The translations under genes were made by a program, and so were the position numbers. From Nitrospiria bacterium (GTDB lineage: Bacteria; Nitrospirota; RBG-16-64-22), in NCBI GenBank assembly GCA_919903025.1, contig CAKKSE010000008.1:16334-80333 (forward strand): a stretch of DNA of 64,000 bases, in the 5' to 3' direction. Positions 1,182 to 62,072 of the stretch are shown here, piece after piece. Numbering within the stretch: position 1 is the first letter of the stretch; the number at the start of each line of letters is the position of its first letter. The notes under the pieces were generated by a model, which ran no database searches, was not told the DNA's origin, and saw nothing but the letters and a program-made list of their open reading frames with translations.

Positions 1182-1529
1182 ATGCCGAACGACGAGATCC
1201 TCGAATCTCTCCTCGCCTTCCGCCGGGAGCGGGACTGGGAGAAGTTCCACACGCCGAAGGACCTGGCGATCTCGATCGTCCTGGAAGCGGCCGAGCTTCT
1301 CGAGGAGTTCCAGTGGAAAAGCCCGGAAGAAGTCGCCCGGCACTTGTCGAATGAAGGAAAGGACCGCGTCGCCGAAGAGCTGGCCGACCTCGCCATCTAC
1401 ATCAAGCTGATGGCCCATGACCTTGAGATCGACCTGGACTCGGCCGTCCGCGCCAAGATCGAGAAAAATCGCGCGAAGTACCCGGTCGGAAAGTCCCGCG
1501 GCACAGCGAAGAAGTACACGGATCTGTAG
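1182..1529 (+). CDS. MazG-like nucleotide pyrophosphohydrolase (small, single domain)
   Basis: 115 aa with the EExxE...EELADL pattern typical of the MazG/NTP-PPase all-alpha fold. The start is 11 nt after the mgtE stop. Confidence 0.55.
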   Translation: MPNDEILESLLAFRRERDWEKFHTPKDLAISIVLEAAELLEEFQWKSPEEVARHLSNEGKDRVAEELADLAIYIKLMAHDLEIDLDSAVRAKIEKNRAKYPVGKSRGTAKKYTDL

Positions 1530-1556
1530 CCGGCCGCCTTTCTCCCCCTCTCGCCG

Positions 1557-1593
1557 TTGACACGTCCTGGCGCGGCATGCTAGGTAGCATGCC
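1557..1593 (+). promoter_or_regulatory. TTGACA -35-like hexamer followed by a perfect 20-bp palindrome GGCATGCTAGGTAGCATGCC (operator-like), upstream of the small RHH-like ORF
   Basis: Read directly: TTGACA at 1557-1562, inverted repeat at 1574-1593, AGGAGG ribosome-binding site at 1610-1615, ATG at 1621. Confidence 0.4.
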
Positions 1594-1620
1594 GTGAAGA
1601 TTGCTCGATAGGAGGCCAAA

Positions 1621-1923
1621 ATGGCCGCGCAGCGCAAAGCCCAAATTGTTTTTCCCGACGATCTCCTGCACGCAGTGGACCGCCTGGTGGGCAGGCGGAA
1701 GCGAAGCGAGTTCGTCGTCTCGGCAACGCTGGAAAAGCTCGTGCGCATCCGGTTTCAGGACGTTCTCAAGAAGACCGCTGGAGCGTGGTCCGTGGCAAGG
1801 CACCCGGAGACACACACAGATGACCCTCACCCGCTGGCTCAAGCGGACGCGAAGGGCGGCCTACTGATAGAGGACGCCGAGGCGAACCGCCGCTCTCCGC
1901 AAGGGGGTGTCCGTCGTCCATAG
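1621..1923 (+). CDS. Small ribbon-helix-helix/CopG-like DNA-binding protein (orphan antitoxin-like), weak call
   Basis: N-terminal sequence AQIVFPDDLLHAVDRLVGRRKRSEFVVSATLEKL resembles RHH antitoxins. Strong ribosome-binding site. The 3' end overlaps convergent vapC by 63 nt. Confidence 0.35.
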   Translation: MAAQRKAQIVFPDDLLHAVDRLVGRRKRSEFVVSATLEKLVRIRFQDVLKKTAGAWSVARHPETHTDDPHPLAQADAKGGLLIEDAEANRRSPQGGVRRP

Positions 1924-2220
1924 CTGAACGTTCGTCAGCAAGGCGGAGGCAAGCAGATGAGCGTCGACAAGACCAACCCCCGTTCCCATCAACCGTCTGG
2001 TCTCGATGAAGCTGAGGAGCTCGTCGTTCTCCACCGCCTTGGCCCGCGGGAGGGCCTGGAGAAGAGAAAGAACCTCGTTTCTGTTGCGCAGATGTCCGAG
2101 GGAAATTTCGCCAACGACGGACGGATGACAGAGTACCGCCCCGTCCAACAGCAATTCCCGCAAATGGACGTTTCCCTCCCGAAGGTGAGAAATCCAGATC
2201 GAGGTGTCGACCAGCACCAT
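1861..2220 (-). CDS. vapC: PIN-domain toxin VapC
   Basis: MVLVDTSIWI...D...acidic residues typical of the PIN fold. Start lies 3 nt downstream of the vapB stop. Confidence 0.8.
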   Translation of the reverse strand: MVLVDTSIWISHLREGNVHLRELLLDGAVLCHPSVVGEISLGHLRNRNEVLSLLQALPRAKAVENDELLSFIETRRLMGTGVGLVDAHLLASALLTNVQLWTTDTPLRRAAVRLGVLYQ

Positions 2221-2222
2221 CT

Positions 2223-2420
2223 TCAGCGCTTTGCGGCCCGTCTTCTCCGGACCGGCAGAAGGCGCTTTTCCGTCCCGCCGAGGTCAGCGAGTCGTCTGCC
2301 GCTTTCCCGGGCGATCAATGCCTCCAGCCCCATCTTCACGAGAGCGGTCTTCTCAGATACTCCGGTCAGCCTGGATGCTCTTGTCAGGACCTTCTCGTCG
2401 ATGTTCAGCGTCGTTCTCAT
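2223..2420 (-). CDS. vapB: VapB-type antitoxin (65 aa)
   Basis: MRTTLNIDEKVLTRASRLTGVSEKTALVKMGLEAL... is a classic VapB/MazE-like N-terminus. I trimmed the frame from the longer 189-aa ORF to the internal ATG at 2418-2420. Confidence 0.7.
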   Translation of the reverse strand: MRTTLNIDEKVLTRASRLTGVSEKTALVKMGLEALIARESGRRLADLGGTEKRLLPVRRRRAAKR

Positions 2421-2452
2421 GCATATTAGTATGCATGGCTCGTATGCGTTCG

Positions 2453-5152
2453 TCAAGCCCTCCCCAGCCACCCCTTCCGCACGGCGAGTTTCGCCGCTTC
2501 GAGAACCGGAAAGATCGTGAGCGCCGCCGCGACGGGCACAACGAGATCCGCCGGAGACAGACTCGCCGTCTGGAACACGTCGCGGAGCCCGGGCGCGTAG
2601 ACCACGGCCGCGAGAAGGGCGATCTCCCAAGCGATCGCGATGTTCAGCCACCGGTTCGACCAGAACCCCGAGCCAAAGATGGAATGGCGGTCCGAGCGAA
2701 AGTTGTACGCCTTGCCGAATTCGATCAGGATGAGCGTCACGAAGACCGTTCCCATCGCCCGCTGAACGCTTGCGCCCGTGGAGAGAAGCCACGCGAAGAG
2801 ACCCATGTTCACGCCCGCCGACCAGAGACCGCCGACGGCCATGAGGGCCACGACCGGCCGTGTGAAGATGCCTTGGCGCGGGTCGCGCGGGGGGCGTTCC
2901 ATGAGGTCCTTTTCCGGCGGATCGAAGGCGAGGGCCAGCGCCGGAAGACCGTCCGTGGCGAGGTTGACGTAGAGGATCTGGACGGCCGAGAGGGGCAGAG
3001 GGTAGCCGAGAAGCGTGGCGGACGCCATCAGAACGATCTCGCCCACGTTCGCGGACAGGAGGTACATCAGGTACTTCTTGATGTTCCCGAAGATCCCCCG
3101 CCCTTCCTCCACGGCCGCGACGATGGACGCGAAGTTATCGTCGGTGAGCGTCATGGCCGCCGCCTCGCGCGAGACGTCCGTCCCCGTGATCCCCATCGCG
3201 ATCCCGATGTCGGCCTTCTTGAGGGCCGGGGCGTCATTGACGCCGTCGCCCGTCATGGCGACGACGTGGCCCCTTCCCTGGAACGCCTCCACGACCATCA
3301 GCTTGTGGGCGGGAGAGACCCGGGCATAGACGCGGATCTCCTCGACGACCCTCGCGTGCTCTTCCGCGCCCATCGCATCGAGGTCCGCCCCGGTCATCAC
3401 CCGCCCGTCCTTGAGGAGTCCGATCTCCCGGGCAACCGCCTCGGCGGTGAAGCGGTGATCGCCCGTGATCATGACCGGGAGGATCCCCGCCGCTTCGCAT
3501 TTCCGGATCGCCTCCGGGACCTCCTCGCGCGGCGCGTCATAGATGCCGACGAGACCCAGGAGCGTCATTCCCCGCTCGCCTTCTTCGGCCGAGTAGGCCT
3601 CGGGCAGGGCCCGGTCCGCAAGGGCGAGCACGCGAAGGCCCCGGCCGGCCAGTCTTCGCGCCTCGTCGAGGATCCTCTCGCGCGCGGGGGGATCGAGGAG
3701 GGTTTCTCCTGACGGTGTCGCGCGCCGCTCGCAGGCGGCGAGGATCACCTCCGGCGCTCCTTTGGAGCAGGCGAAGAGACCGTCCGGCCCGCGGTGGAAC
3801 GTGGTCATCCGCTTCCGCTCGGAGGAAAACGGAGCCTCGCCGATTCGTGGAGCTTCGTTCTCCAGGGAGGCTTTCTCCATTCCCGCCTTCGCCGCCGCGA
3901 CCACGAGGGCCCCTTCCGTCGGATCTCCCGCGATTTGCCACCCCGCCTCCCCCCTCCGCAAGCGGGAGTCATTACAGAGGGCGCCCGCCCTCAGCAGACG
4001 AACCAGATCGGACCAGAGCGAATCCGTCGTCCCGACGGGAATCCCGCCCCGCTGAAGGCCGCCTTCCGGCTCGTATCCCGAGCCCGTCACGTCGATCTCC
4101 TCTCCGGCCAAAACGATTCGCCGGACGGTCATCTCGTCCTTCGTGAGCGTTCCAGTCTTGTCCGTGCAGATCACGGACGTGGAGCCGAGCGTCTCGACGG
4201 CCGGGAGGCGCCGGACGAGCGCGTTTCGCCTGACCATCCTCCGGACGCCCAGGGCGAGCGACACGGTCACAACGGCCGGCAGGGCCTCCGGAACGACGGC
4301 CACGGCCAGGGCGATCCCCCAGACGAACATCTGGAAAAGCGGCTCGCCCCTCAGGAGTCCCGCGCCGACGATCAGGGCCACGACAACGAGCCCGGCCTGG
4401 ACGAGCCGTTTGCCGACGCGGTCCAGCTCCTTCTGGAGCGGCGTCCTCCCCCGCTCGACGGTCTGAAGCATTCCGGCGATCTTCCCGAACTCCGTCGTCA
4501 TGCCCGTCTGAACGACGACCCCGCGCCCCCGCCCGTACGTCAAGGCCGTTCCCGCGTAGAGCATGTTCCGCCTGTCTCCCAGGGAGGCTCCGGCCTCGGA
4601 GACGAGCGAAGCGTCCTTCTCCACGGGCATCGATTCGCCCGTCAGGACCGCCTCCATCGCCTGAAGGTTGACCGCCTCGATCAGCCGCGCGTCGGCCCCC
4701 ACCTTGTCGCCCGTATGCAGGACGAGGAGGTCGCCCGGAACCAAGTCCCGTGCGGGAACCTGCCTCTCCTCGCCGTCCCGAAGGACGGTCGCCGCAGGCG
4801 CGGCGAGAGCCCGGAGCGCCTCGACGGCCCGTTCGGCCCGGTACTCCTGAATAAACCCCATGACGACGGCGAGGAGAACGATCGCCCCGATGACGACAGC
4901 CTCGGCGGCGTGACCCATCAAGGCCGAGAGCGCAACGGCGACAAGGAGGACGGCGAGAAGGACGTTCTTGAACTGGTTGAAGAAGATGGAGAGAGGCGAG
5001 ACGCCAGCGGTTTCTTTGAGCTCGTTCGGGCCGTACTCAGCCAGCCGCCTCAGGGCCTCCTGCTCGGAGAGACCGCCGGCGGAGGAACCGACCTCCCGCA
5101 AGACGTCCTCGGCGGCGAGGGAATGCCATGGAATGGTCTGTAGGCGATTCAT
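2453..5152 (-). CDS. P-type cation-transporting ATPase (P2-type, Ca2+/Mg2+-like)
   Basis: 899 aa with DKTGTLT phosphorylation motif, TGES, GDGVNDAPAL hinge and 10 predicted TM segments. Confidence 0.9.
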   Translation of the reverse strand: MNRLQTIPWHSLAAEDVLREVGSSAGGLSEQEALRRLAEYGPNELKETAGVSPLSIFFNQFKNVLLAVLLVAVALSALMGHAAEAVVIGAIVLLAVVMGFIQEYRAERAVEALRALAAPAATVLRDGEERQVPARDLVPGDLLVLHTGDKVGADARLIEAVNLQAMEAVLTGESMPVEKDASLVSEAGASLGDRRNMLYAGTALTYGRGRGVVVQTGMTTEFGKIAGMLQTVERGRTPLQKELDRVGKRLVQAGLVVVALIVGAGLLRGEPLFQMFVWGIALAVAVVPEALPAVVTVSLALGVRRMVRRNALVRRLPAVETLGSTSVICTDKTGTLTKDEMTVRRIVLAGEEIDVTGSGYEPEGGLQRGGIPVGTTDSLWSDLVRLLRAGALCNDSRLRRGEAGWQIAGDPTEGALVVAAAKAGMEKASLENEAPRIGEAPFSSERKRMTTFHRGPDGLFACSKGAPEVILAACERRATPSGETLLDPPARERILDEARRLAGRGLRVLALADRALPEAYSAEEGERGMTLLGLVGIYDAPREEVPEAIRKCEAAGILPVMITGDHRFTAEAVAREIGLLKDGRVMTGADLDAMGAEEHARVVEEIRVYARVSPAHKLMVVEAFQGRGHVVAMTGDGVNDAPALKKADIGIAMGITGTDVSREAAAMTLTDDNFASIVAAVEEGRGIFGNIKKYLMYLLSANVGEIVLMASATLLGYPLPLSAVQILYVNLATDGLPALALAFDPPEKDLMERPPRDPRQGIFTRPVVALMAVGGLWSAGVNMGLFAWLLSTGASVQRAMGTVFVTLILIEFGKAYNFRSDRHSIFGSGFWSNRWLNIAIAWEIALLAAVVYAPGLRDVFQTASLSPADLVVPVAAALTIFPVLEAAKLAVRKGWLGRA

Positions 5153-5169
5153 GGGCGGTGTCGAAGGAA

Positions 5170-5610
5170 CTAAAGCAGGCCCCTTTTCATGGCGCTCAAG
5201 AACGCCTCCGGCCCGAGAACCAGGATCCCCTCATATTCGCGGACATCCAGGAGATGGGCATCGCGGCTCACTATGTAGCGCGCGCCCGTCTTCAGCGCGA
5301 GATGGAAGAACTTGTCGTCGTCCGGGTCAGCCGGCACGATCCTCTCGCGGCCGCGGCTGTCGCCGAGATGGGAGCTCTCCTTGAGGAGCCCGATGAAGGC
5401 CTCGATTCTGTTGGCCGACCAGCCGAGAAGCGTACGTATTCTGGGATAGGAGAGAACGCGGCGGACTTCGGCCAGGATCTCGTTCGACAGCACCAGTTCG
5501 TATCTTGCCTCCCCTTCGAGTCCCGACGCCTTCAGGATCTCGAAGGACGGCCCCGTCGGGCCAAGAAGCGCCGAGACGATCTGGTTCGTATCCAGAACGA
5601 CCCGAATCAT
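5170..5610 (-). CDS. PIN-domain toxin (PIN_3 family)
   Basis: MIRVVLDTNQIVSALL...RDAHLL pattern. Overlaps the upstream antitoxin by 4 nt. Confidence 0.75.
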   Translation of the reverse strand: MIRVVLDTNQIVSALLGPTGPSFEILKASGLEGEARYELVLSNEILAEVRRVLSYPRIRTLLGWSANRIEAFIGLLKESSHLGDSRGRERIVPADPDDDKFFHLALKTGARYIVSRDAHLLDVREYEGILVLGPEAFLSAMKRGLL

Positions 5611-5888
5611 CCTGGCCGAGCGCGACGCCTCGCCCAGCGAACCGCCTGGTCAATCAGGCGCTCGATCTCCTCCGCCTTCTTCCCCTTGTTCCTTTCGTGG
5701 ACGTCCTCGATGATGGCCAACAGCGCCTTCTTCGACGCCTCGTGTCTCTCGAGAATCTCGATGGGAACGATCGCGGCGGCCGGCTTCCCCTTCTTGCTGA
5801 TGACGTAGTGGTCTCCCCGAAGACGAGCGCCATCCACCAGGTCTCCCAGCCTCTTCCGCGCATTCTCGACCGTCACGCTTCGGCTCAT
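5607..5888 (-). CDS. Phd/YefM-family antitoxin
   Basis: SVTVENARKRLGDLVDGARLRGDHYVISKKGKPAAAIVPIEILE is a typical Phd/YefM N-terminus. Start set at the internal Met (cat at 5886-5888). Confidence 0.7.
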   Translation of the reverse strand: MSRSVTVENARKRLGDLVDGARLRGDHYVISKKGKPAAAIVPIEILERHEASKKALLAIIEDVHERNKGKKAEEIERLIDQAVRWARRRARPG

Positions 5889-5979
5889 GGCTTCCTCCTG
5901 ATCCTTACAGAACTTACTAACAATGATAATTCCTGAGGGCAAGAAAGTAAAGCTCTCCCGTGGAGCGAGGAGGCCCTGA

Positions 5980-6993
5980 TCACCGCCCGCCTCTCTCCAG
6001 GATGTAGACCCCATAGGCGTTGAGAAAGTAGATCGCGAAGATCGCAGCGGCGACCCAGCTCAGGCGCAAGCCCCGCTTCGTCTCCGGCTGATAGAAGAGG
6101 GCCAGGATGGCGATCCCGCTCATAATGATCGCGGAGAGGGCCGGAAGGAAATGCGTGCGGGAGACATGCGCGAGAATGGGGCCAGGGGTGTAGAGGAGAT
6201 CATTCACGGCCAAGATGGCTAGGTTGAAGAGGTTGCTCCCCAGGAGTCCCCCAATGGCAAGGTCGATGGCGCCCATCCTCAGCGCCGCGAGCGAAGTCAC
6301 AACTTCCGGCAGCGTGGTGGCCATAGCAATGAGGAGCGTTCCTACGAACGTCTGCCCCCACCCCGTGGCCTCGGCTAGGTCCTCACCGACAAACGGCAGC
6401 CAAGCGGCCGCGGCGATGATCGCGGTCGCGTTCAGGGCAAACCCCCGGTAGGCTCTCGCCGAAGAGAACTCTTCGTACTCGCGGACCGCCTTCAGTTCTT
6501 CCCGAATCTTCCTCCGTTCGAACCGGAAGATCACCCGCATCCCGATGACGTAGAAAACGAGGAGGAGCGGTGTATACAGCCCGACCCAGGAGAGCCGAAG
6601 AGGAACTCCCATTCCGCTCATGAGGAGACCGACGGCCGCGATGCCCAGCATGACGACGCCGAACCCCGCCGCAAGAATATGCCCCTGCTCCGCCCGGGAG
6701 AGGACGGCGCCCGGGCGGTAGAGCAGGTCCAGTACGGCAATGACCGTCAGGTTGATCATGCAGGCGCCCAGCACATCCCCGACGGCGATGTCGGGCAAAT
6801 CCGCCGCCGTCACGGCACTTGCCCCCGTGATCAACTCCGGGAGAGATGTGACGGAGGCCATCAGGACGACGCCGATCCACGTCCGGCCCATTCCCGTCTT
6901 CTCGGCGATGATGTCCCCGTACCGCGTCAGGCGCACTCCCGCCGCGAGGATCAACAGCATGCACGCCGCGAATTGAAGCCAGATGGACAGCAT
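5980..6993 (-). CDS. CaCA-family cation/Ca2+ antiporter (YrbG-like)
   Basis: Two alpha-repeat regions (GxSxPE..., GNLLGSNLFN) and about 10 TM segments. Confidence 0.75.
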   Translation of the reverse strand: MLSIWLQFAACMLLILAAGVRLTRYGDIIAEKTGMGRTWIGVVLMASVTSLPELITGASAVTAADLPDIAVGDVLGACMINLTVIAVLDLLYRPGAVLSRAEQGHILAAGFGVVMLGIAAVGLLMSGMGVPLRLSWVGLYTPLLLVFYVIGMRVIFRFERRKIREELKAVREYEEFSSARAYRGFALNATAIIAAAAWLPFVGEDLAEATGWGQTFVGTLLIAMATTLPEVVTSLAALRMGAIDLAIGGLLGSNLFNLAILAVNDLLYTPGPILAHVSRTHFLPALSAIIMSGIAILALFYQPETKRGLRLSWVAAAIFAIYFLNAYGVYILERGGR

Positions 6994-7012
6994 GGTCTCC
7001 GGCTGAACGGGC

Positions 7013-8296
7013 TCAGGCGTACCTGAGCCACCAGTAGAGACTGGCGATCGCGATCGAGAACAGCATCAGCGGAAACGCCAACAGCATGAACGGGAGGAAC
7101 CGGATCGGCTGGCCCGCCCGCTCGGCGAACCCGGCGACGATCAGGTTGGCCGAGGCGCCGATGATCGAGCCGTTGCCGCCGAGGCAGGCCCCGAGCGCGA
7201 GCGCCCACCAGAGGGGGCGGATGGCCTCATCGCCTCCGAACGAGGGCCCCATGCCCTTGATAATCGGGATCATCGTCGCCACGAAGGGAATGTTATCCAC
7301 CAAGGCGGAGAAGACGGCCGAGCCCCACATGATGACCATCCCCGCCAGGAAGAGGTTTCCCCTCGTGAGGTCGGCCAGTTGGCCGGCCAGGATGTTGAGA
7401 AGCCCCGCCTTCTCCAGGCCGTGGACGAGCATGAACAAACCGACGAAGAAGAAGATCGTCACCCACTCGACCTCGCCGAACGTGTGGTGAAAATCCTTGC
7501 CGGACCACCAGAGGAGAACCACGGCGCCCGTCAAGGCGATGATGGCCGGCTCCAGGTGGAGGGAATGCGCCATCGTGAAGCCCGCGATCACTCCCGCGAG
7601 CACGGCCATCGACTTCCACAGGAGGACCCGGTCGCTGATGGCGTCCCCCTCCCGGAACTCCATGATCCGCTCCCGATCCTCCTCTGCAACCTTCATCTTG
7701 CGCCCCCAGATAAGGTAGAGGGGAAGAAGCGTGGCAAGAAAGATGACGACCGTCACGGGCGCAAGATGGATCACAAAGTCCATGAACGACAGCCCGGCGG
7801 CCGAGCCGATCAGGATGTTAGGCGGATCGCCGACGAGCGTCGCCGTCCCACCGATATTGCAGGCAAAGATCTGCGCGAACAGGAACGGGTAGGCCGAAAC
7901 CTTCAGGGCATCGGCGATCAGCATCGTCACGGGCGCCACGAGAAGGACCGTCGTCACGTTGTCCAGCAGGGCCGAGAGTACGGCCGTGACGACGGCCAAT
8001 ACGACCAGGATCGGCCACGGCCGCCCGCCCACCTTCTTGGCCGACCAGATGGCGAGGAACTGGAACACCCCCGACTTCTGGGTGATCGCCACGATCACCA
8101 TCATCCCCACGAGGAGGAAGATCGTGTTCAGGTCGATCCCTTTGAACGCGTCGGCCTGCGACTGGATGCCCGCGAAGATCATGATCGCGGCGCCCAGGAG
8201 CGCGATCACGGCGCGGTTGACCTTCTCCGTCATGATAGCGATGTACGTGGCGATGAAGATGCCCGTGGCAACGACGAGCGCGGCGGTTCCCGTCAC
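7013..8296 (-). CDS. ArsB/NhaD-superfamily anion permease (CitMHS/YbiR-like)
   Basis: 427 aa polytopic protein with IGGTATLVGDPPNILIG and duplicated halves. Confidence 0.65.
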   Translation of the reverse strand: MTGTAALVVATGIFIATYIAIMTEKVNRAVIALLGAAIMIFAGIQSQADAFKGIDLNTIFLLVGMMVIVAITQKSGVFQFLAIWSAKKVGGRPWPILVVLAVVTAVLSALLDNVTTVLLVAPVTMLIADALKVSAYPFLFAQIFACNIGGTATLVGDPPNILIGSAAGLSFMDFVIHLAPVTVVIFLATLLPLYLIWGRKMKVAEEDRERIMEFREGDAISDRVLLWKSMAVLAGVIAGFTMAHSLHLEPAIIALTGAVVLLWWSGKDFHHTFGEVEWVTIFFFVGLFMLVHGLEKAGLLNILAGQLADLTRGNLFLAGMVIMWGSAVFSALVDNIPFVATMIPIIKGMGPSFGGDEAIRPLWWALALGACLGGNGSIIGASANLIVAGFAERAGQPIRFLPFMLLAFPLMLFSIAIASLYWWLRYA

Positions 8297-10383: not shown

Positions 10384-10460
10384 TGGTAGCGGGGGCAGGA
10401 TTTGAACCTGCGGCCTTTGGGTTATGAGCCCAACGAGCTACCGGACTGCTCCACCCCGCG
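10384..10460 (-). tRNA. tRNA-Met (CAU anticodon; initiator-like 5' CGCGGGG acceptor)
   Basis: Reverse complement reads CGCGGGGTGGAGCAGTCCGGTAGCTCGTTGGGCTCATAACCCAAAGGCCGCAGGTTCAAATCCTGCCCCCGCTACCA. Cloverleaf is canonical and CCA is encoded. Confidence 0.85.
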
Positions 10461-11882: not shown

Positions 11883-11955
11883 GAAACCTCCTTATTCAGG
11901 CCGTTCGGTTGATGGGTAGATAGGAAAAGCCCAAACCACAAGCTCTTGTCGATCT

Positions 11956-11992
11956 GCAATTTTCAATTTTCAATTTCCAATTTTCAATTCTT
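11956..11992. repeat. AT-rich heptad tandem repeat (AATTTTC)n, copy A
   Basis: CAATTTTCAATTTTCAATTTCCAATTTTCAATTC between the ntrY stop and the ntrX start. Confidence 0.6.
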
Positions 11993-19471: not shown

Positions 19472-21201
19472 CAGTACGCGAGCCTCATCTTATCCGGGTC
19501 GGGCGTCCCCCAGATCGTGGGATTGTACCCGAGCACGCGGTTCTTGTGGGCGACGAAGACCGACTCCCGGGCCGTGAGGATCACCGGAAGCTCTTCGTGC
19601 AGGATCTCCTGGATTCTTTTGTAGTACTGCGGCCTCTTCTTCGGGTCGAGCTCCCGCGCCCCGAGGTCGATCAGCCTGTCGATCTCCGCCTCCCACGCCG
19701 TCTCAGGCTTGGCCTGCCGCGGGTTCCACATGTGGAGATGGCCGCTCGACTTGTAGAAGGTCGAGCCCCAGTGCGGCTCCAGCCCCCCCGTCAGGCCGAT
19801 CAGGATCGCGTCCCACTCGAAGTTGCTGTCGAGCTTCTCGACAAGCGTATTGAATTCGAGCGGCTTGTAGTTGACCTTGAGCCCGAGCTTCTTCCAGTCC
19901 TCGAGGACGATCGCCGCGATCCGTTCGCGCGTCCGGTTCCCCTGGTTCGTGTAGAGGTCGAACGAGACGGGATTCCCGTTCGGGTCCTCGCGGATCTTGT
20001 CCCCGTCGCGGTCCCGGTACCCGGCCTCGTCGAGAAGTCTCTCCGCCTTCTTGAGATCGTACTCGTAGTCCTTGATGGCGGCGTTGTGGAACCTCTTGAC
20101 CTCTGGAGAGATGTCAGCCACAGCCGGCTCGCCGTACCCGCGGAACGCGTTGAAGACGATCGTCTCCTTGTCCACGGCGTGGGCCAGCGCCCGGAGGAAC
20201 CTCTTGTCCGTGAACCAGTCGAGGCGCGGATCGCGCTTCCCGCCCTTCACGTAGTGCCGGGGGTTCCGGTTGAAGGCGATGAACGGCGTCCCCGTGGAAA
20301 GCCCCAGCTCCTTCAGCGTCCAGTCCCTCGCCCGGGCCTTCCCGCGAATGGTCTCGACCATGTCGGCCGAGGGGCCGTAGATGTCCGTGTCCCCCGCGTC
20401 GAACTTGACGTAGGCCGTGTTGATGTCCTTCACGATCAGGAGGACGCGCCGCTTGACGTACGGAAGCCGCTCTCCCTTCTCGTCCGTCCGCCAGTAGCGG
20501 GGATTGACCTCGTACAGGACGTGCTGGGCGGGAACGTACTTCGTGATGAGGTACGGCCCCGTTCCGGCAAGCTCTTCCGGGGGCGTGTTGATGTTCCAGG
20601 CCGAGTCGAACTTCCCGGCGTCCAGCGCCGCTTCGAGCTTGTGCCTCGGCAGAATATCCACCTGCACGATGTCGAGGAACGGCGCGAAGGGAAAGGGAAG
20701 CGTGAACGTGACCGTGTGCCGATCGGCCGCCTTCACGATCATCTTCCCCCCCTCGATCATCCAGGCGTCCCGGATCGAGGAAGCGACCTTGGGGTCGTAG
20801 ATCGCCCGCGCCGTGAAGACGACGTCCTCGGCCGTGAACGGCACGCCGTCGCTCCAGAGAACGTCCTTGCGGAGCCTGAAGGTCCACGTCCGGCCGTCGG
20901 GCGAGACGGACCACGACTCCGCCAGGACGGGCTCGAAGTCGGTCGTGACGGGATCGCGCCGGATGAGCCCCTCGAAGAGGATCCCCGCGACGGCCGACGA
21001 CGACGTCTCCTTCGAGACGATCATGTTGAAGGTCTTGGGGTCCCCCAGCGTGTCGGTCGTGAGCGTGGGCGGAAGCTCCACCCGCTCCGCCTTGCCCGAG
21101 CAGGCGAGAAGAAGGGCAAACAGCGGAATGTAAGCGAACCGGGGAACGATCGTAATTCTGCGCACGGCGCGCATAATACCATAGTGAGAGCGCATTGCCA
21201 C
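19471..21201 (-). CDS. ABC transporter substrate-binding lipoprotein, family 5 (oligopeptide/dipeptide/nickel type)
   Basis: Lipobox LLLACSG and an SBP_bac_5 domain over about 520 aa. The start could be one of several N-terminal Mets. Confidence 0.8.
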   Translation of the reverse strand: MAMRSHYGIMRAVRRITIVPRFAYIPLFALLLACSGKAERVELPPTLTTDTLGDPKTFNMIVSKETSSSAVAGILFEGLIRRDPVTTDFEPVLAESWSVSPDGRTWTFRLRKDVLWSDGVPFTAEDVVFTARAIYDPKVASSIRDAWMIEGGKMIVKAADRHTVTFTLPFPFAPFLDIVQVDILPRHKLEAALDAGKFDSAWNINTPPEELAGTGPYLITKYVPAQHVLYEVNPRYWRTDEKGERLPYVKRRVLLIVKDINTAYVKFDAGDTDIYGPSADMVETIRGKARARDWTLKELGLSTGTPFIAFNRNPRHYVKGGKRDPRLDWFTDKRFLRALAHAVDKETIVFNAFRGYGEPAVADISPEVKRFHNAAIKDYEYDLKKAERLLDEAGYRDRDGDKIREDPNGNPVSFDLYTNQGNRTRERIAAIVLEDWKKLGLKVNYKPLEFNTLVEKLDSNFEWDAILIGLTGGLEPHWGSTFYKSSGHLHMWNPRQAKPETAWEAEIDRLIDLGARELDPKKRPQYYKRIQEILHEELPVILTARESVFVAHKNRVLGYNPTIWGTPDPDKMRLAY

Positions 21202-21344
21202 CCACGGCCGTTCACCACGGCCGTTCGATTCTGCATTCCCTTCACCCCCACCCTGGCCCTTGTATCTTGTCCAAGGGGGTCTGGGTCATAGACAATGGAA
21301 CCGTTCTTTAGCCAAGGCGTGGCAGATCGTCCTTGCCCCCCCCC

Positions 21345-21424
21345 GTCAAGGGGGAGGAAATTCCTGAAGCACCGACTTGCTCTTTTCCTCCCCCCTTGAG
21401 GGGGAGGAATAAGGTGGGGGGGGG
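21345..21424. repeat. G-rich hairpin element (CCTCCCCC-loop-GGGGGAGG family), two adjacent units
   Basis: CAAGGGGGAGGAAA ... TTTCCTCCCCCCTTGAGGGGGAGGAA read directly in the divergent promoter region. Confidence 0.5.
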
Positions 21425-26336: not shown

Positions 26337-26344
26337 AGACGGTA

Positions 26345-26388
26345 TTGAAAATTGTAAATTTCAAATTGAAAATTTTCAATTTTCAATG
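26345..26388. repeat. AT-rich heptad repeat, copy B (palindromic arrangement GAAAATT...AATTTTC)
   Basis: TTGAAAATTGTAAATTTCAAATTGAAAATTTTCAATTTTCAATG between two convergent genes. Confidence 0.6.
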
Positions 26389-29971: not shown

Positions 29972-30070
29972 GGGAGCGGCTCGGTCACTGGTGGACCGCT
30001 AGGTCTTCAAAACCCATGTGGGGTGCTGAGAGGCGCTCCAGGTGGGTTCGATTCCCACACGCTCCCGCCA
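29972..30070 (+). tRNA. tRNA-like gene with selenocysteine-tRNA architecture (UCA anticodon, long extra arm), a candidate selC or a pseudo-tRNA
   Basis: Hand-folded from the sequence. The 7-bp acceptor GGGAGCG/CGCTCCC is followed by a G8·A mismatch abutting the T-stem, giving 8/5 geometry. The D-stem is CGGTC/GACCG. The anticodon arm has loop CTTCAAA, identical to the E. coli tRNA-Sec loop. The extra arm is an 8-bp stem (3 G·U pairs) with a GAGA tetraloop. The T-arm is GTGGG-TTCGATT-CCCAC, with G73 and an encoded CCA. Total length is 99 nt. Confidence 0.45.
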
Positions 30071-45420: not shown

Positions 45421-46189
45421 GATCGGAATGCTATCCAAACGGATGAACAGCCGCAAGAAACGGTTTGTGTACGCCGGGATCGGCCTCGGCGCCGGCCTTG
45501 TCCTGGCCCTGGGAGCCTTTGTCCTGACTCTGCCGGACGTGTCCGCGCTCGCCGGAACGAACCCGAGGACGACGGCGCTCATGGAGCAACGGGCCTCCGA
45601 GGCAAAGGCGAAGGGAAACAGCCGTGCCAGCCGCCGCGACTGGGTGCCGCTCAATCGGATCGCCCCGCACGCCGTCCTCGCAGTCGTCACGATGGAGGAC
45701 GACCGGTTCTGGCGGCACGAGGGGTTCGACTTCGTGGAGATGAAGGAGGCCGTGCAGAAGAACTGGGAGAAGAAAAGCTGGCGCCGCGGCGCATCGACGA
45801 TCACCCAACAGCTCGCGAAGAACCTCTACTTCGGGACGGAGAAGAACCTCTGGCGGAAAGTCCGCGAAGCGGCGACGGCCTGGAAGATAGAGCGGGCGCT
45901 GTCCAAGCGGCGGATCCTCGAGATCTATATGAACGTCGTCGAATGGGGAAACGGGATCTACGGCATCGAGGCCGCGTCACGGCACTATTTCGGAAAGAGC
46001 CCGGCGGACCTGTCGGTCGACGAGGCCGTCCGCCTCGCCGTCGTTCTTCCAAGCCCGAGGCGGTACGATCCCCGCGGATCGTCCGCGTTCGTCGAGAACC
46101 GGCGGTCTGTACTGCTGGAACGTCTCGCCCGAAAGGGCGTCCAGACCGAAGCGGAACTCGCGTTTGGAACGCCGGGGTCTTCACTTTGA
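45410..46189 (+). CDS. mtgA: Monofunctional biosynthetic peptidoglycan transglycosylase
   Basis: TM anchor followed by a GT51 domain (EDxRFxxHxG, STITQQL, RKxxE motifs). About 260 aa. Confidence 0.8.
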
Positions 46190-46220
46190 AATTTTCAATT
46201 TTCAATTTTCAATTTACAAT
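46186..46220. repeat. AT-rich heptad repeat, copy C
   Basis: TTGAAATTTTCAATTTTCAATTTTCAATTTACAAT, 13-47 nt upstream of the ABC-F start. Confidence 0.6.
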
Positions 46221-46232
46221 CCGGCTCTCATC

Positions 46233-48236
46233 ATGATCTCAATCCAGAATCTCCAGAAATCGTTCGGCGGCCGGGTCCTCTTCCGTGACGCCTCGCTCCG
46301 GATCGGCGCCCGGGACCGCGTGGCCCTCGTCGGGCCGAACGGCGCGGGAAAGACGACGCTGTTCGAGATGGTCGCCGGGAACGAACCGCGGGACGGCGGC
46401 GAGATCGTTATCGCCCGCGGCGTCACGGTGGGTTACCTTCCCCAGGAGATCCTTCCCCAGGGGAGCCGGGACGTCCTCAAGGAAGTCCTATCCGTCGCGG
46501 GCGACATCACGAGCATCGAGCACCGGCTGAAAGCCCTGGAAGCCGACATGGCCGAGGCGCCTCCCGAAGAAGCCGAGCGCCTCGCCCACGAGCACGGCGA
46601 GCTCATGCACCACTTCGAGCGGATGGGCGGATACATGATCGAGAACGAGGCCAAGCGCATTCTCACCGGCCTCGCCTTCCGGGAGACCGACCTCTCGCGC
46701 AGCGTGGAGACGTTCTCCGGCGGCTGGCGGATGCGGATCGCCCTGGCCAAGCTCCTCCTGGTCAACCCGGACCTCCTCCTCCTGGACGAGCCGACGAACC
46801 ATCTCGACCTTCTTTCCGTCATCTGGCTCGAGGGGTTCCTCCGCGCGTACGAAGGAGCGATCGCCGTCATCTCCCACGACCGCCAGTTTCTGAACAACCT
46901 CTGCACCGGCGTGGTGGAAATCGAGGGCGGGAGGCTCGCGGCCTACGTGGGAAACTACGAGGCCTTTACGGCGGCCAAGGCGGAGGGCCGGGCAATCCTC
47001 GAAGCGACGGCCAAGAACCAGCAAAAGAAGATCGCCGAGACCGAGAAGTTCATCGAGCGGTTCCGGTACAAGGCGACGAAAGCCCGGCAGGTCCAGAGCC
47101 GGATCAAGATGCTCGCAAAGGTGGACCGCGTCGCCCTTTCCGAGGAGCGGAAGAAGGTCCGCTTCCATTTCCCCGATCCGCCCCGGTCGGGGGAAGACGT
47201 GCTGGTTCTCTCCGGGGTCTCCAAGTCCTACGGCGGGAAGACCGTCTACCAGGACCTCGATCTCACCGTGCGTCGCGGGCAGAAGATCGCCTTGGTCGGG
47301 CCGAACGGCGCCGGCAAGTCCACCCTGCTCAAGATCCTGGCGGGCGTCCTGCCGTTCGAGACGGGCGAGCGGCGCGTGGGCCACAACGTGGAGACCGCCT
47401 ACTACGCCCAGCATCAGCTCGAGGCGCTCGAGCCCCGGCGGACGATCCTCGCGGAGATGCAGAACCACTGCCCGGAAGATTCCCAGGAGCGCCTCCGGAC
47501 CCTTCTCGGCGCGTTCCTCTTCACGGGAGACGACGTCGACAAGAAGATCTCCGTCCTCTCGGGCGGCGAGAAGGCGCGCGTCGCCCTCGCCAAGATGCTC
47601 GTCCGCCCGGCGAACTTCCTCTGCCTCGACGAACCCACGAACCACCTGGACATCCCTTCCCGCGACATTCTCGAATCGGCCCTCTCCAGCTTCGCCGGGA
47701 CTGTCGTCTTCATCACGCACGACCGGCACCTGATCCGCGCCATCGCCAACGGGATCGTCGAGATCGACGGCGGGCGCGCGTCGATCTATCCCGGCGATTA
47801 CGACTACTATCTGTACAAGAAGGGTGTATCAACCACGACCGCCTCGCGCGAATCGAGCGTGCCCACACCCCCTCCTCCCCTCCCCCCGCCCGCGGTGGGA
47901 GGGCCAGGGTGGGGGGCGGTCGCGTCCGGCCCGAAGACCCGTGACATGAAGAAAGCCGAGGCCGAAGCGCGGAACGCCCGGTACAAAGCGACGAACAGCG
48001 TGAAGAACCGGGTCAAAAAGGTGGAGGAATCGCTGAACAAAGCGCTGATCCGGAAGGAAGAGATCGAGCGTCAACTTGCCGATCCGGCGTTCTACGAGAA
48101 GAAGGAATCCTTCTTCGAGCTTCTCTCCGAGCACGGGAAGCTCAAGAAAGAGGTAGAGCGGTTCACGGCCGAGTGGGAGAAACTCTCCGCGCAACTGGAA
48201 GAAGCCGAGCAGGCCCTCGCCGAAACGGGGACCTGA
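46233..48236 (+). CDS. ABC-F family ATPase (two ABC domains, no TMD; Uup/EttA-like) with a C-terminal coiled coil
   Basis: Two Walker A motifs ([18 protein letters not shown]), two LSGG signatures and a C-terminal KE-rich coiled coil. The linker between ABC2 and the coiled coil contains a Pro/Gly-rich segment encoded by a G-rich repeat element. Confidence 0.85.
47868..47919. repeat. G-rich element (CCCTCCCC...GGGAGGGCCAGGGTGGGGG) embedded in-frame in the ABC-F coding sequence
   Basis: The 19-nt string GGGAGGGCCAGGGTGGGGG also occurs at about 55199-55218 in intergenic DNA. Here it encodes [18 protein letters not shown]. Confidence 0.5.
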
Positions 48237-54921: not shown

Positions 54922-55087
54922 TCGAAGGCAAGACGGATCGAGCCCAAACCGCCACGGACGGCATCATCCACGACTTCCCCCGCCAGCCGGAAATCCCTCC
55001 GCTCTCAGGGTGTTGAAAAAGTGGTCCTTCCGGCTTTCCTGTGGGTATCCCCCGCATGTTGTGGTCTCGGGATGTCCGCGTTTTTTC

Positions 55088-55222
55088 CCCCCCACCTTGA
55101 TCCTCCCCCGCAAGGGGGGAGGAGAGCGTGAGGCGGAAACGCCGCTTTTCCAAGGAGGTGGAGGAAGCCCTCAGAAAACAATCCCCTCCCCCTGGACGGG
55201 GGAGGGCCAGGGTGGGGGTGGT
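55088..55222. repeat. Two G-rich hairpin units (TCCTCCCCC-GCAA-GGGGGGAGGA and CCCCTCCCCC-TGGAC-GGGGGAGGG) plus the shared GGGAGGGCCAGGGTGGGGG segment
   Basis: Read directly in the 500-bp intergenic region upstream of the addB-like gene. Confidence 0.5.
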
Positions 55223-55460
55223 CGAGCGGGGCAACGCTTCCCCCAAGATATGGGCCACACCCACACAAAACCCGGATGCGCCGAAAAAGTATCTCACCCC
55301 AGCATCTCCTGGATTCCCGCTTTCGCGGGAATGGCGTGGAAGGGTGCGCGGGAGGTTTTTCAACAAGCTCCTATTGTTCGATCAGCCCCAATCTGATATT
55401 GATTGACCGGCGCATCCGGGAGTGACCCCATCTGTCACGGACGTCTGCTACCCTTTCACC

Positions 55461-58619: not shown

Positions 58620-61600
58620 AATGATCCGCGATATCCGCCGTCACGTCATGATCCACGCCCCGGCCGGGTCGGGAAAGACCCACGCCCTCGTCACGCGGAC
58701 GCTCGCCCTGCTCGCCGCGGGAGAGACCCCGGAAGGGATCGTCGCCGTAACGTTTACGGACAAGGCGGCGCTGGAAATGCGGGAGCGGATTGTCCGGGGA
58801 CTCGCCCGTCCGGACCAAGCCGGATTCCCGGGCGCCGAGGAGAAGGACCGGCTTCGGTCGCTCTGGATGGAGGTCCGCGACGAGCCGCGGCGGCTCCGCG
58901 TGAGCACGATCCACGCCTTCTGCGGCGACGTCCTCCGCCGGTTCCCGATCGCCGTCGGCCTCGATCCGGACTTTTCCGTCCTCGACCCGCACGACCAGGC
59001 GTACCTCAGGGCGCGCGCCGTGGAGGAGTCTGTCTCCGTGTGGAGGCGGGGCCGCGGGACGGAGGCGGGCGAGAGGTTCCGAGAGACCGCGGGCGCGGCC
59101 GGAGGGATCCGCGCCCTGACGAAGATGCTGGTGGAGATGCTCGCGGGTCGAAAGCGGCTGGGAGACGTCATCAGGCGGTGGGCGGGGGACGGCGCGATCG
59201 ACCCGGACGAATACGCCGAGGAGTACGCCCGCGGCATGAAGATCGCCTGGACGCGCGTCTGGCTGGGAGGAGGAGGAGAGACCCTGCGGGAAAGACTGAT
59301 CGAGTTCTGCTCTGTCATGAAGGGCCACCCGACGGCGAACAAAGAGTACGCGCTCGAAACACTCACCGCCCGAGTCCACGCGGACGATTTCGGGACGACC
59401 GACGACATCGTCTCGCTCACGCTGGGATTCCTCACGAAGAAGGGCGAACCCCGCAAGGCATTCCGCATCGCGAAGAAGGAGATGAACGGCATTGACCGTG
59501 CCCTCTACGAATCGCTCCACGCTACGGTCGCCGGTCTCCTTGCCCCGCTCGCCGGCGAAGCGATGAGCCACCCGCCCGTCGAAACCGCGCGCCGGGCCGC
59601 CCGCGCGTGGGCTTCGTGCCTGGCCCTCTACGTCGAGGTCGAGCGGAGATACGACAATCTCAAGAGACAGCACGGGGGGATCGACTTCGACGACCTGGAG
59701 ATTCTGGCCTTGGGCCTCCTGACCGGCCAGGCGGCCGAGCGCGCGAGAGGCGACGCCGGGTTCCACCCGATGGACGCCCTCCTGGCCCTCGACAACCGCG
59801 TCCGCCACCTCCTGATCGACGAGTTCCAGGACACGAGCGGCCTCCAGTGGGAGATCGTGAAACCCCTCGTCTCGGAATGGCTCTCCGGAGAGGGATCGTC
59901 CGACACGCCCAGGACGTTCTTCGCCGTGGGAGATCCGAACCAGTCGATCTACCTCTTTCGAGACGCCGAAGTGACGCTCATGAGGTCCGTCCGGCGGAAG
60001 ATCGAGGACCTGCCGGAGGAAAACCGGGCCCTCGTCCCCTTTGAGACAAACCGCCGCTCAACCCGTGCGATCGTCGCGTTCGCGAACCACGTCTTTCCCC
60101 CCCTCCTCAAGGGCGATTACACGACTTCCCTCGGCACGCGCCTGGAAGAGGGCTCGGTGTCGATCCGGCTGGTCCTGGGAAAGGACCCGGGGCGGATCCT
60201 GGAGGCAAGGCTCGTGGCGGAAACGCTCCGGTCGGCCGAGGGACTCCCGGTCTTCGACAGAGACGCCAGGGACCCGCGCCCCGCCTCCTGGGGGGACATG
60301 GCCGTCCTCCTCCGCACCCGGACTTCCCTCGAAGTCTACTGCGACGCCTTCCGGACAGCGGGCGTTCCCTACGTCGTCATCGGCGGGCTGGGATTCTTCG
60401 ACCGCCCGGAGGTGCGGGACGTCCTGAACCTCTTCGCCCTCTTGATCGACGAGAACGACGACCTGGCCCTCGCCGCGTGGCTCACCTCGCCGGGGGCCGG
60501 TCTCTCCGACCTCGACCTCTTTGGCGTCGCGTCAGCCGAAGGAACGACCCTTCGCAGCCGCCTGAGGCGTCTGGCGTCCGCCGACCCCCGGCTCGGTCGG
60601 GTTAGCAGCGCGCTCGACCGCTGGTCGGCCTGGGCGGGCCGGGTCTCGATGGCCGAGATTTTGCGCCGCGTCTTCGAGGAGACGGCGTTCCGCGAAACGA
60701 CAGCCGCCCTGCTCGGACCGCCGGCCCGGGCGAACTTGGCGAAGCTCCACGAAATGGTCCGCGCCGTCGAGGCGCGCGGCTGGTCGGCCCCGGCCGACGT
60801 CCTCCACCGCCTCCAGACCCTTCGCGTCCACGGCGGAGACGAGGCCCAGGCCGACCTCCCGATGGAAGAAGCGAACGGATTGGGAAAAGCCCGTCATGGG
60901 TCGGTCCGGATCATGACCGTCCATGCCGCCAAGGGTCTCGAATTCCCGATCGTTATCGTCCCCATGCTGGGGAAACCGCATCCCCAGGACAAGCGTTCCG
61001 TCGCTGTCGAGGGAGGTTTCGCGGGCATCGATCTCCCCGGCGCCGCAAAGGGAGACCGCAATCCGTTCGCCTGGTTCCGCGCCCGGTACAATGAGAAGAG
61101 ACTCGCGGAAGAGAAGCGCCTCCTGTACGTCGCCGCGACTCGCGCCCGCGATCACCTCTTCCTGGCGGGAGGCGTTTCCGTAAAGGGAGAGACCGGACGG
61201 ACGATCGAATGGCCAAAAGCCGACTCCTCGTGGCTCGGCCTCATCGCCTCCACCGCGCTGATTCCCGAAGCGCCCGTCCCCGACCCGGCCGATGTATTGG
61301 AGATGCGGTTTAGATCTGCATCTTCCCCCGAAGTCATATTCCACGCGGCTGTGGACCCGTCCGCCTCCCTCCCCGACACGTCGGGGCGAGAGGAAACGGT
61401 CTCCGCGCGGAGTTACCCCGCCACGGAGGGCCTGGCGCAGGTCCGGCCGGCCGGACCGGTCTTCGTATCGGACGGCAAGAATCCCGATGAGGACGAAAGG
61501 CCCTTATCCTCGGCGCCGTGGGAGCCCGCGGTCGATCTGGCGCGGGAGAAAGGAACGCTCGTTCACCGGGCCCTCGACATTCTCGCGCGGGGCGGAGAAC

Positions 61601-62028
61601 CGGCCTGGGACCGCTGGAAGGACCGGATCGCCGCGGCCGCGCCCGAGATCGACGAGGCCGGCATTCAAAACGAGATCGGGAGAGTCCGCGAACACGTGGA
61701 ACGGGCCGTGTCGTCGCCCGGCGTTTCGTGGGCGGCGGGAAGGGAGGGATTGGTCGGGTCCGAGATCGACATCATCGTCGCCGAGAAGGAGAAGGCTCTC
61801 GCCGTTCGCCTCGATCGGCTATACTTGCGGGATGGGGTCTATCATATCGTCGACATCAAGACCGGCCGGGCCGACACGCCGGAGGAGACCGCCGCCCAGG
61901 TCGAGAAGTACCGTCCCCAAATGGCAATGTACGCAAGAGCCGTGAGACTCCTCTACGGGCCGGATGCGGCCGTCCGGACGTGGCTGTTGTTCACGGGCGC
62001 CCCGAAGGTTGTGGAAGTAGAAAATTGA
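58609..62028 (+). CDS. addA: AddA-like UvrD/Rep superfamily-1 helicase–nuclease
   Basis: Walker A APAGSGKTH, helicase motifs through VI, and a C-terminal PD-(D/E)XK nuclease (IVDIKTG). About 1140 aa. Confidence 0.8.
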   Translation: MAAEMIRDIRRHVMIHAPAGSGKTHALVTRTLALLAAGETPEGIVAVTFTDKAALEMRERIVRGLARPDQAGFPGAEEKDRLRSLWMEVRDEPRRLRVSTIHAFCGDVLRRFPIAVGLDPDFSVLDPHDQAYLRARAVEESVSVWRRGRGTEAGERFRETAGAAGGIRALTKMLVEMLAGRKRLGDVIRRWAGDGAIDPDEYAEEYARGMKIAWTRVWLGGGGETLRERLIEFCSVMKGHPTANKEYALETLTARVHADDFGTTDDIVSLTLGFLTKKGEPRKAFRIAKKEMNGIDRALYESLHATVAGLLAPLAGEAMSHPPVETARRAARAWASCLALYVEVERRYDNLKRQHGGIDFDDLEILALGLLTGQAAERARGDAGFHPMDALLALDNRVRHLLIDEFQDTSGLQWEIVKPLVSEWLSGEGSSDTPRTFFAVGDPNQSIYLFRDAEVTLMRSVRRKIEDLPEENRALVPFETNRRSTRAIVAFANHVFPPLLKGDYTTSLGTRLEEGSVSIRLVLGKDPGRILEARLVAETLRSAEGLPVFDRDARDPRPASWGDMAVLLRTRTSLEVYCDAFRTAGVPYVVIGGLGFFDRPEVRDVLNLFALLIDENDDLALAAWLTSPGAGLSDLDLFGVASAEGTTLRSRLRRLASADPRLGRVSSALDRWSAWAGRVSMAEILRRVFEETAFRETTAALLGPPARANLAKLHEMVRAVEARGWSAPADVLHRLQTLRVHGGDEAQADLPMEEANGLGKARHGSVRIMTVHAAKGLEFPIVIVPMLGKPHPQDKRSVAVEGGFAGIDLPGAAKGDRNPFAWFRARYNEKRLAEEKRLLYVAATRARDHLFLAGGVSVKGETGRTIEWPKADSSWLGLIASTALIPEAPVPDPADVLEMRFRSASSPEVIFHAAVDPSASLPDTSGREETVSARSYPATEGLAQVRPAGPVFVSDGKNPDEDERPLSSAPWEPAVDLAREKGTLVHRALDILARGGEPAWDRWKDRIAAAAPEIDEAGIQNEIGRVREHVERAVSSPGVSWAAGREGLVGSEIDIIVAEKEKALAVRLDRLYLRDGVYHIVDIKTGRADTPEETAAQVEKYRPQMAMYARAVRLLYGPDAAVRTWLLFTGAPKVVEVEN

Positions 62029-62072
62029 TAATTGAAAATTCTCAATTGAAGATTTGAAATTGAAGATCGAGA
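62019..62072. repeat. AT-rich heptad repeat, copy D (reverse orientation: GAAAATT units)
   Basis: GAAAATTGATAATTGAAAATTCTCAATTGAAGATTTGAAATTGAAG between the addA stop and the psuG start. Confidence 0.6.

Follow-up and report, generated by a model that had tools for sequence, protein, structure and literature searches.

A dispersed triplex-type repeat and its probable in-frame insertion in an ABC-F gene of a Nitrospiria bacterium

A 64,000-nucleotide stretch of the genome of a Nitrospiria bacterium (GenBank assembly GCA_919903025.1, contig CAKKSE010000008.1, positions 16,334 to 80,333, referred to here in its full length as the window) carries several copies of a short G-rich repeat, one of which lies in frame within a gene for an ABC-F ATPase. 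Judged from its sequence, the segment at 47868-47916 is probably one copy of a class II intrastrand triplex repeat that is dispersed and ~35-40 nt long, most likely tolerated as a selfish or neutral in-frame insertion rather than adapted as a linker. Repeats of this family have been on record since the 1990s; they are described as TMECO and, in earlier work, as BoxC or PIT elements (Holder et al. 2015, PMC4666352; Hoyne & Maher 2000 and 2002 cited there). For the window alone the message is modest, namely a known repeat type and an ABC-F gene that is intact. What is new, and a modest novelty, is that triplex repeats recur inside genes, in frame, across phyla. A literature search returned no description of in-frame genic copies for this repeat family, and a search for the exact 18-mer and for the peptide strings (GEGQGGG, TPTLALP and others) returned nothing relevant.

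Three-arm architecture of the window repeats

Each element consists of three arms on a single strand. The first is rich in C, the second is its G-rich Watson-Crick complement, and the third is again G-rich and the mirror image of the second, with T where the second has A; fold-back of the strand spells C-G*G and T-A*T/A triplets. The published motif definition (ITxF, Holder 2015) was adopted, which consists of a pyrimidine arm, a complementary purine arm and an antiparallel third arm with only C-G*G, T-A*A and T-A*T triplets, stems of 6-15 nt, loops of 1-6 nt and at most one mismatch; the scanner was written for this study on the published triplet rules. The scan of the window returned five motifs, three of them perfect (9-10 triplets), and none in each of 100 dinucleotide shuffles. 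The five motifs are the members of two intergenic inverted pairs, a decayed partner not being counted, and a double-sided copy in the ABC-F open reading frame (ORF) (Table 1). The ABC-F insert is termed double-sided because the minus-strand motif uses the same central hairpin as the plus-strand motif, with a first loop of 8 nt that is beyond the published 1-6 range. The third arm and the inverted-pair layout of the intergenic copies go beyond the initial annotation of this region.

That annotation had proposed a single dispersed repeat family, which was borne out by a shared 19-mer and hairpin as well as by the triplex motifs when set against shuffled sequence. The 19-mer GGGAGGGCCAGGGTGGGGG was exact at 47897-47915(+) within the ABC-F ORF and at 55200-55218(+) between genes, and was found with three mismatches at 21245-21263(-) and 55089-55107(-). 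These four matches at up to three mismatches compare with 0.08 expected, and none of 100 shuffles reached four. Three sites had been claimed for the family with its shared 19-mer; two of them (ABC-F and 55 kb) hold the 19-mer exactly, and the 21.3-kb site has the same architecture in a variant sequence. Exact copies of the hairpin CCTCCCCC-loop-GGGGGAGG were found at 21387-21407, 55102-55122 and 55185-55205 where 0 were expected, and the ABC-F hairpin CCCTCCCCCC/GGTGGGAGGG is of the same type with one C.T mismatch (12-nt arms, 92% complementary). A chance likeness would draw on the ~64% G+C of the window and on the proline (CCN) and glycine (GGN) codons of a Pro/Gly-rich linker, which give C-runs and G-runs. 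Such an origin is exceedingly improbable given the exact 19-mer common to the ABC-F and an intergenic copy, the shuffle result for the whole window and the lack of the repeat peptide signature in the other 119 listed ABC-F homologs.

The arms of the window variants stay in register with each other, GGGGGAGGG occurring with GGGTGGGGG, GGGGGAGGA with AGGTGGGGG and GGGGGAGGAA with AAGGTGGGGG, and the T of arm 3 moves along with the A of arm 2 between the first two of these combinations. In 830 kb of loci fetched from other genomes there were 217 motifs of many arm types, 118 of them without the 19-mer, and all three arms co-varied in the arm variants (for example CCTTCCCCC/GGGGGAAGG/GGATGGGGG and CCCTCTCCC/GGGAGAGGG/GGGTGAGGG). 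The mirror rule was evaluated on 181 perfect 9-bp pyrimidine/purine hairpins from the 830 kb that had an asymmetric arm and lacked the 19-mer. A third arm matching at 9/9 positions was found for 50 of the 181 hairpins under the antiparallel (mirror) rule versus 4 under the direct-repeat rule, which rules out a direct-repeat reading of arm 3. The conserved constraint of the repeat family, as read from these hairpins, is the mirror (triplex) rule, and by the same triplet rules the window element is classed as a variant among the purine-motif (class II) intrastrand triplex repeats.

Folded as a single strand with a tool that models Watson-Crick hairpins only, the inverted pair at 55087-55220 gave one long hairpin (-38.8 kcal/mol, z = -3.07). 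Hairpin energies of the single elements were ordinary relative to shuffles (z from -0.1 to -2.9); ordinary values are expected from C/G-run sequence and hairpin energy is therefore no useful test for single elements. At 21.3 kb the decayed partner and the perfect motif form an inverted repeat with 24-nt arms that are 79% complementary. The third member of a repeat family (D12) that includes the decayed partner at 21332-21360 lies at 60093-60120; it was not returned by the triplex scan and was treated as chance. Rfam at the gathering threshold identified no family matching the repeats in the whole window, where it reported two tRNAs only, and at E<=10 over 55040-55260 it gave only microRNA-type hairpin matches far below threshold.

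The initial annotation had also drawn attention to G-quadruplex (G4) potential, a potential that only the ABC-F and 55184 copies bear out. Both contain a canonical G4 motif (G3+ tracts joined by loops of 1, 3 and 1 nt), at 47897-47916 and 55198-55218 respectively. The two perfect copies 21385-21420 and 55089-55123 contain none, having only GG tracts beside their A/T interruptions. G4 potential is not the common property of the family because two perfect copies have no canonical motif, yet these copies follow the triplex rule at every position. We consider it unlikely that the repeat is a G4/hairpin/duplex switch that regulates nearby genes and that, its G-rich strand being sense in the ABC-F mRNA, pauses translation between domains. 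In its favour, besides the two canonical motifs in the window, a switch of this kind has been proposed for the E. coli relatives of the repeat with support from circular dichroism (CD) (Kaplan et al. 2016, PMC5100583), and archaeal relatives change between triplex and G4 with potassium (PMC8044849). Nuclear magnetic resonance (NMR) of TMECO gave a triplex and not a G4 (PMC4666352), however, and genic copies in other genomes, such as those in an Lhr-type helicase gene described below, lie in both orientations relative to the gene, which argues against a function at the level of mRNA.

Relation to TMECO and other known repeats

The TMECO pattern CCCTCNCCC N3-6 GGGNGAGGG N3 GGGNGAGGG has been reported at 3610 copies in 262 proteobacterial genomes, and CD and NMR of TMECO oligonucleotides in vitro show an intrastrand class II triplex of very high stability (PMC4666352). 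Like TMECO/PIT/BoxC elements, the window repeats have three arms of 9 nt on one strand, a first loop of 3-6 nt, a second loop of 3 nt and class II C-G*G / T-A*T triplets, and are multi-copy, frequently in inverted pairs and without conserved flanks. They differ in having CCCTCCCCC/GGGGGAGGG/GGGTGGGGG or TCCTCCCCC/GGGGGAGGA/AGGTGGGGG as arms, with C-G*G replacing one T-A*A, and arm 3 of the window is GGGTGGGGG where that of TMECO is GGGNGAGGG. The strict TMECO pattern had no match in the window and six in the fetched loci. The repeat was filed as a variant and not as TMECO proper because the window copies differ by one whole triplet (C-G*G for T-A*A).

Every TMECO copy in E. coli MG1655 is intergenic and five inverted pairs are present there (PMC4666352). 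Closely spaced inverted pairs also occur in the window, at 55089-55123(-)/55184-55218(+) and 21332-21360 (decayed)/21385-21420, whereas the strictly intergenic location does not carry over, given the copy at 47868-47916 in the ABC-F ORF and the genic copies in other genomes. The published locations for E. coli MG1655, Methanomicrobiaceae and D. radiodurans are all between genes or non-coding, and TMECO has been reported from Proteobacteria whereas the window variant occurs in many phyla and also inside genes. Earlier work on the family recorded neither promoter nor terminator activity (via PMC4666352), and TMECO loci show raised local sequence variability between strains (PMC4666352).

The element strand consists of the pyrimidine arm, the complementary purine arm, a loop of ~3 nt and a G/T arm antiparallel to the purine arm. 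In a proposed course of events, when single-stranded during replication, repair or transcription, it would fold into a hairpin with the third arm in the major groove, as the in-vitro work on TMECO suggests. The folded triplex would be expected to stop polymerases in vitro and to go with local sequence instability, to judge from the published TMECO work. Purine-motif triplexes are not formed in RNA (work cited in PMC4666352), which points to a property of the DNA. H-DNA is similar in its purine-motif triplets, the mirror symmetry of its purine tract and its link to genetic instability. It differs in that a homopurine mirror repeat in duplex DNA suffices and the other half-strand is left unpaired, whereas all three arms of the window repeat are on one strand, so that a single strand can fold alone (PMC4666352). 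The repeats of Methanomicrobiaceae are comparable in that a G-rich tract with four G-runs adjoins a complementary C3TC3 tract, and they are in equilibrium between hairpin, antiparallel triplex and G4 in vitro. Their C-rich arm is 3' where that of the window repeat is 5', and all the archaeal copies were reported as intergenic (PMC8044849).

The initial annotation had described the repeat as mobile, which the flanks do not support. Across 214 aligned copies no terminal inverted repeats, target-site duplications or other ends typical of MITEs, the miniature transposable elements that carry inverted repeats, were visible, and base composition reached background within ~2-3 nt outside the arms; because conservation stops ~2 nt beyond the three arms, no terminal inverted repeat or target-site duplication can be seen. 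It is accordingly doubtful that the repeat is a conventional miniature transposable element (MITE or REP-like) served by a transposase encoded elsewhere in the genome, although multiple dispersed copies, inverted pairs, insertion into genes and occurrence in many phyla would be in keeping with one. The unit of ~35-40 nt is also shorter than typical MITEs, and TMECO is unassociated with transposons, phages or plasmids (PMC4666352). Among 2.9 million viral contigs in IMG/VR only nine stretches matched the 19-mer, which likewise speaks against such an element and on which an association with viruses was rejected.

The in-frame copy in the ABC-F gene

The ABC-F ORF spans 46164..48236 and comparison with orthologs placed the real start at the ATG at 46230. 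The segment 47868-47919 is in frame and encodes an 18-residue Pro/Gly-rich peptide (residues 547-564), which Pfam and AlphaFold2 place between ABC domain 2 and the C-terminal coiled coil, confirming the position and translation proposed in the initial annotation. In the AlphaFold2 model, residues 535-566 had pLDDT <50 and no secondary structure and the coiled coil comprised residues 570-665; the linker 535-566 is thus predicted to be disordered. When 21 orthologs were aligned, the region bounded by YDYYLYKK and RKTKEQKR varied in length and sequence in every lineage, and the window linker was no longer than those of other orthologs, the element-free members of which have ~30-45 residues.

The proposal that the linker segment is an insertion was upheld by the ortholog comparison. 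The organism is placed in Nitrospirota, and its ABC-F protein shares 84% identity with the one from 'Nitrospirae bacterium RBG_16_64_22'. In this ortholog (L121) ~48 nt are missing at the motif position and there is no triplex motif at all. The repeat peptide signature was found in one of the 120 best listed ABC-F homologs, P0001, which is ~100% identical to the window protein. The comparison shows one copy to have apparently entered the hypervariable, predicted-disordered ABC-F linker after the split from the RBG_16_64_22 relative, and on its sequence the ABC-F copy is regarded as a derived, lineage-specific insertion at a place where almost any flexible peptide appears to be tolerated. The copy would survive because the frame is kept, all six frames are free of stops and the Pro/Gly-rich peptide is tolerated by the flexible linker. 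Neither of the two exact-19-mer copies in the window in which the six-frame openness of the all-G variants was checked, the ABC-F copy (47865-47921) and the 55184 copy (55181-55221), has a stop codon in any of the six frames, while stops close three of the six in a TMECO-type sequence assembled here from the published pattern and the type A loop (TTA). This openness of the variant with the CCA loop and all-G arm may explain its presence in genes, unlike TMECO.

Exaptation of the element, as claimed in the initial annotation, would mean that selection keeps it as a flexible Pro/Gly-rich linker from the ATPase core to the coiled-coil domain. The copy is in frame, exactly in the linker and of typical flexible sequence, and in the related ortholog L120 this place likewise holds a segment derived from a repeat. 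Exaptation is nonetheless improbable, as element-free orthologs have linkers of similar length so that nothing new is provided, the linker is the least conserved part of the ABC-F protein, and many unrelated proteins contain the same repeats, in either orientation and in each of the three frames. Preservation of the frame is a survival filter and no evidence of benefit. Nothing in the sequences or the predicted structure points to a gained function for the peptide, the orthologs having linkers of similar length and the segment being predicted as disordered, and the claim of exaptation was not sustained.

Several observations weigh against a tolerated insertion of a triplex-forming element. In the 86%-identical ortholog L120 (2093-2138) the same linker position holds a different triplex type on the minus strand, CCCCCCTTT-GCA-AAAGAGGGG-CGGA-GGGGGGATT. 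As this motif is of another type, an older insertion followed by replacement and two independent insertions are both possible. The flanks in the alignment of L120 and L121 were too diverged to place insertion ends or a target duplication. A selected linker role of the peptide may be compatible with the sequence data, and in-vivo dimethyl sulfate (DMS) footprinting of TMECO gave no stable triplex signal (PMC4666352). The L120 linker also has an additional, weaker triplex motif on the plus strand. The same ABC-F linker thus holds different repeat variants in sister lineages (the window and L120).

Upstream of the ABC-F gene is an AT-rich (CAATTTT)n array of 4-5 tandem heptamers, which is present at four intergenic sites in the window: 11950-11990(+), 26338-26381(-), 46185-46222(+) and 62004-62061(-). 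One array stops ~8 nt before the ABC-F start codon, and the array is kept upstream of the ABC-F orthologs in two relatives (L120 ~405-445 and L121 ~4955-4995). It could be an operator/promoter array or a second dispersed repeat.

Distribution across bacteria and in-frame copies in other genes

The initial annotation had left room for the 19-mer being confined to two sites in the window, which is not the case. In a search covering one representative genome per species the 19-mer was present in at least 119 loci of many phyla, with 122 19-mer sites among them. The hosts among the matches listed included Burkholderiales and other Alpha-, Beta-, Gamma- and Deltaproteobacteria, Chloroflexota, Planctomycetes (Tepidisphaeraceae, Gemmataceae), Acidobacteria, Bacteroidota (Salinibacter, Prevotellaceae), Spirochaetes, Elusimicrobia, Armatimonadota, Nitrospirae, Binatia and Schekmanbacteria. 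A full triplex motif was present at 99 of the 122 sites, and the usual surroundings were tTCCCTCCCCC, a loop of 4-6 nt, GGGGGAGGG, CCA and GGGTGGGGG.

Genic copies were sought as long ORFs across the 122 sites with a coding-type GC pattern on both sides, and candidates were checked by Pfam and solved structures. In-frame copies were identified at no fewer than eight, that is at least 8 of the 122 sites among the matches listed (Table 1). They use all three frames and both orientations, encoding GEGQGGG, GGPGWG and GRARVG when read on one strand, or TPTLALP and PHPGPPP when read on the other. In the second, unrelated ABC-F the copy occupies a different site, where the second ATPase domain begins, instead of the C-terminal linker. 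Two more triplex motifs were observed just outside the Lhr ORF of L064.

Table 1. Repeat copies and the ABC-F gene in the window, and in-frame copies in other genomes (positions of L loci are those of the fetched locus)
Feature	Position	Strand	Details
ABC-F ATPase gene	46230..48236	+	Pfam ABC_tran x2, ABC_tran_Xtn, ABC_tran_CTD
Triplex motif in ABC-F ORF	47878..47916	+	10 triplets, 1 mismatch; includes exact 19-mer; arm 1 CCCTCCCCCC 47878-87, loop 1 GCCCGC (6 nt), arm 2 GGTGGGAGGG 47894-903, loop 2 CCA, arm 3 GGGTGGGGGG 47907-16
Overlapping opposite-strand motif	47868..47902	-	CCTCCCAC/GGGGGAGG/GGAGGGGG; 8 triplets, 1 mismatch
Perfect motif	55184..55218	+	CCCTCCCCC-TGGAC-GGGGGAGGG-CCA-GGGTGGGGG; 9/9 triplets; intergenic, ~200 nt upstream of AddB-like gene
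Perfect motif, sequence variant	55089..55123	-	TCCTCCCCC-CTTGC-GGGGGAGGA-TCA-AGGTGGGGG; 9/9 triplets; inverted partner of 55184 copy
Inverted pair of 55089/55184 motifs	55087..55220		Spacing 60 nt
Perfect motif	21385..21420	+	TTCCTCCCCC-CTTGA-GGGGGAGGAA-T-AAGGTGGGGG; 10/10 triplets; divergent intergenic, SBP_bac_5 gene (-) / cyclase gene (+)
Decayed inverted partner of 21385 motif	21332..21360	-	Hairpin CCCCCCCC/GGGGGAGG, one mismatch; third arm lost
Degenerate remnant	21238..21263	-	ACAAGGGCCAGGGTGGGGGTGAAGGG; 16/19 bases of 19-mer; arm 1/arm 2 hairpin lost
Ribonucleotide reductase alpha (L022)			19-residue insert PLSSDPLPRSAGEGQGGGF; alignment to human RRM1 otherwise continuous
MnmG (L058)			~110 extra residues with two repeat-encoded segments; E. 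coli MnmG has ~8 there
RecG (L104)			~60 extra residues between wedge and helicase domains
Lhr-type helicase (L064, Acidobacteria bacterium LB_ACB_1)	1205-7054		1950 residues; six motifs, both orientations, all between Pfam domains
Second, unrelated ABC-F (L068, Chloroflexota metagenome-assembled genome)	3183-5082		Exact 19-mer in frame, PSPASGGGPGWGL
PMT_2 glycosyltransferase (L002)			Inverted pair
Two-domain methyltransferase (L057)			One copy
PFL-like enzyme (L061)			One copy

The genic copies indicate, as read from the in-frame ORFs, that triplex elements do enter genes and would be translated. A broader reading, which we put forward tentatively, is that the all-G variants (arm 3 = GGGTGGGGG) undergo active copying and, across bacterial phyla, settle in frame in protein-coding genes, adding GEGQGGG, GGPGWG, GRARVG or TPTLALP segments to loops and linkers of essential enzymes (ribonucleotide reductase, MnmG, RecG, Lhr, ABC-F). 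The nearest known behaviour, by analogy, would be that of the Rickettsia palindromic elements (PMC10969869), which are likewise short palindromic repeats found in frame in unrelated housekeeping genes, translated and tolerated. Those elements are ~150 bp, restricted to Rickettsia and without triplex architecture, and the likeness to the window repeat is behavioural only. If the broader reading is true, in-frame colonisation would be a pan-bacterial counterpart of the Rickettsia elements, and filled and empty sites in conserved genes could reveal the copying mechanism of the repeats. Conserved genes with copies could serve as rulers for dating insertions and defining their ends. The in-frame copies are a possible source of linker variation, and genic copies would account for a class of unusual inserts rich in Pro and Gly and of small ORFs annotated spuriously in genomes.

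The genes beside the intergenic copies were as named in the initial annotation (a cyclase and addB). Pfam identified a cyclase (HAMP/Guanylate_cyc) that starts at 21459 and is divergent to an SBP_bac_5 gene ending at 21201, and a 1065-aa PD-(D/E)XK (AddB-like) protein from 55422. A 581-codon ORF at 19546-21291(+), antisense to the real SBP_bac_5 gene, enters the repeat remnant and ends ...TPTLALVSCPRGSGS, an example of how repeats lengthen spurious ORFs where genomes are rich in G+C. Rfam matched nothing in the window beyond a selenocysteine tRNA (70 bits, 29972-30066(+)) and an ordinary tRNA (10387-10460(-)). In the Dehalococcoidia loci L005, L071 and L079 the triplex motif was often directly preceded by another short hairpin repeat, cattcccgcgaaagcgggaat, and small repeats of different kinds seem to gather at shared intergenic positions in these genomes.

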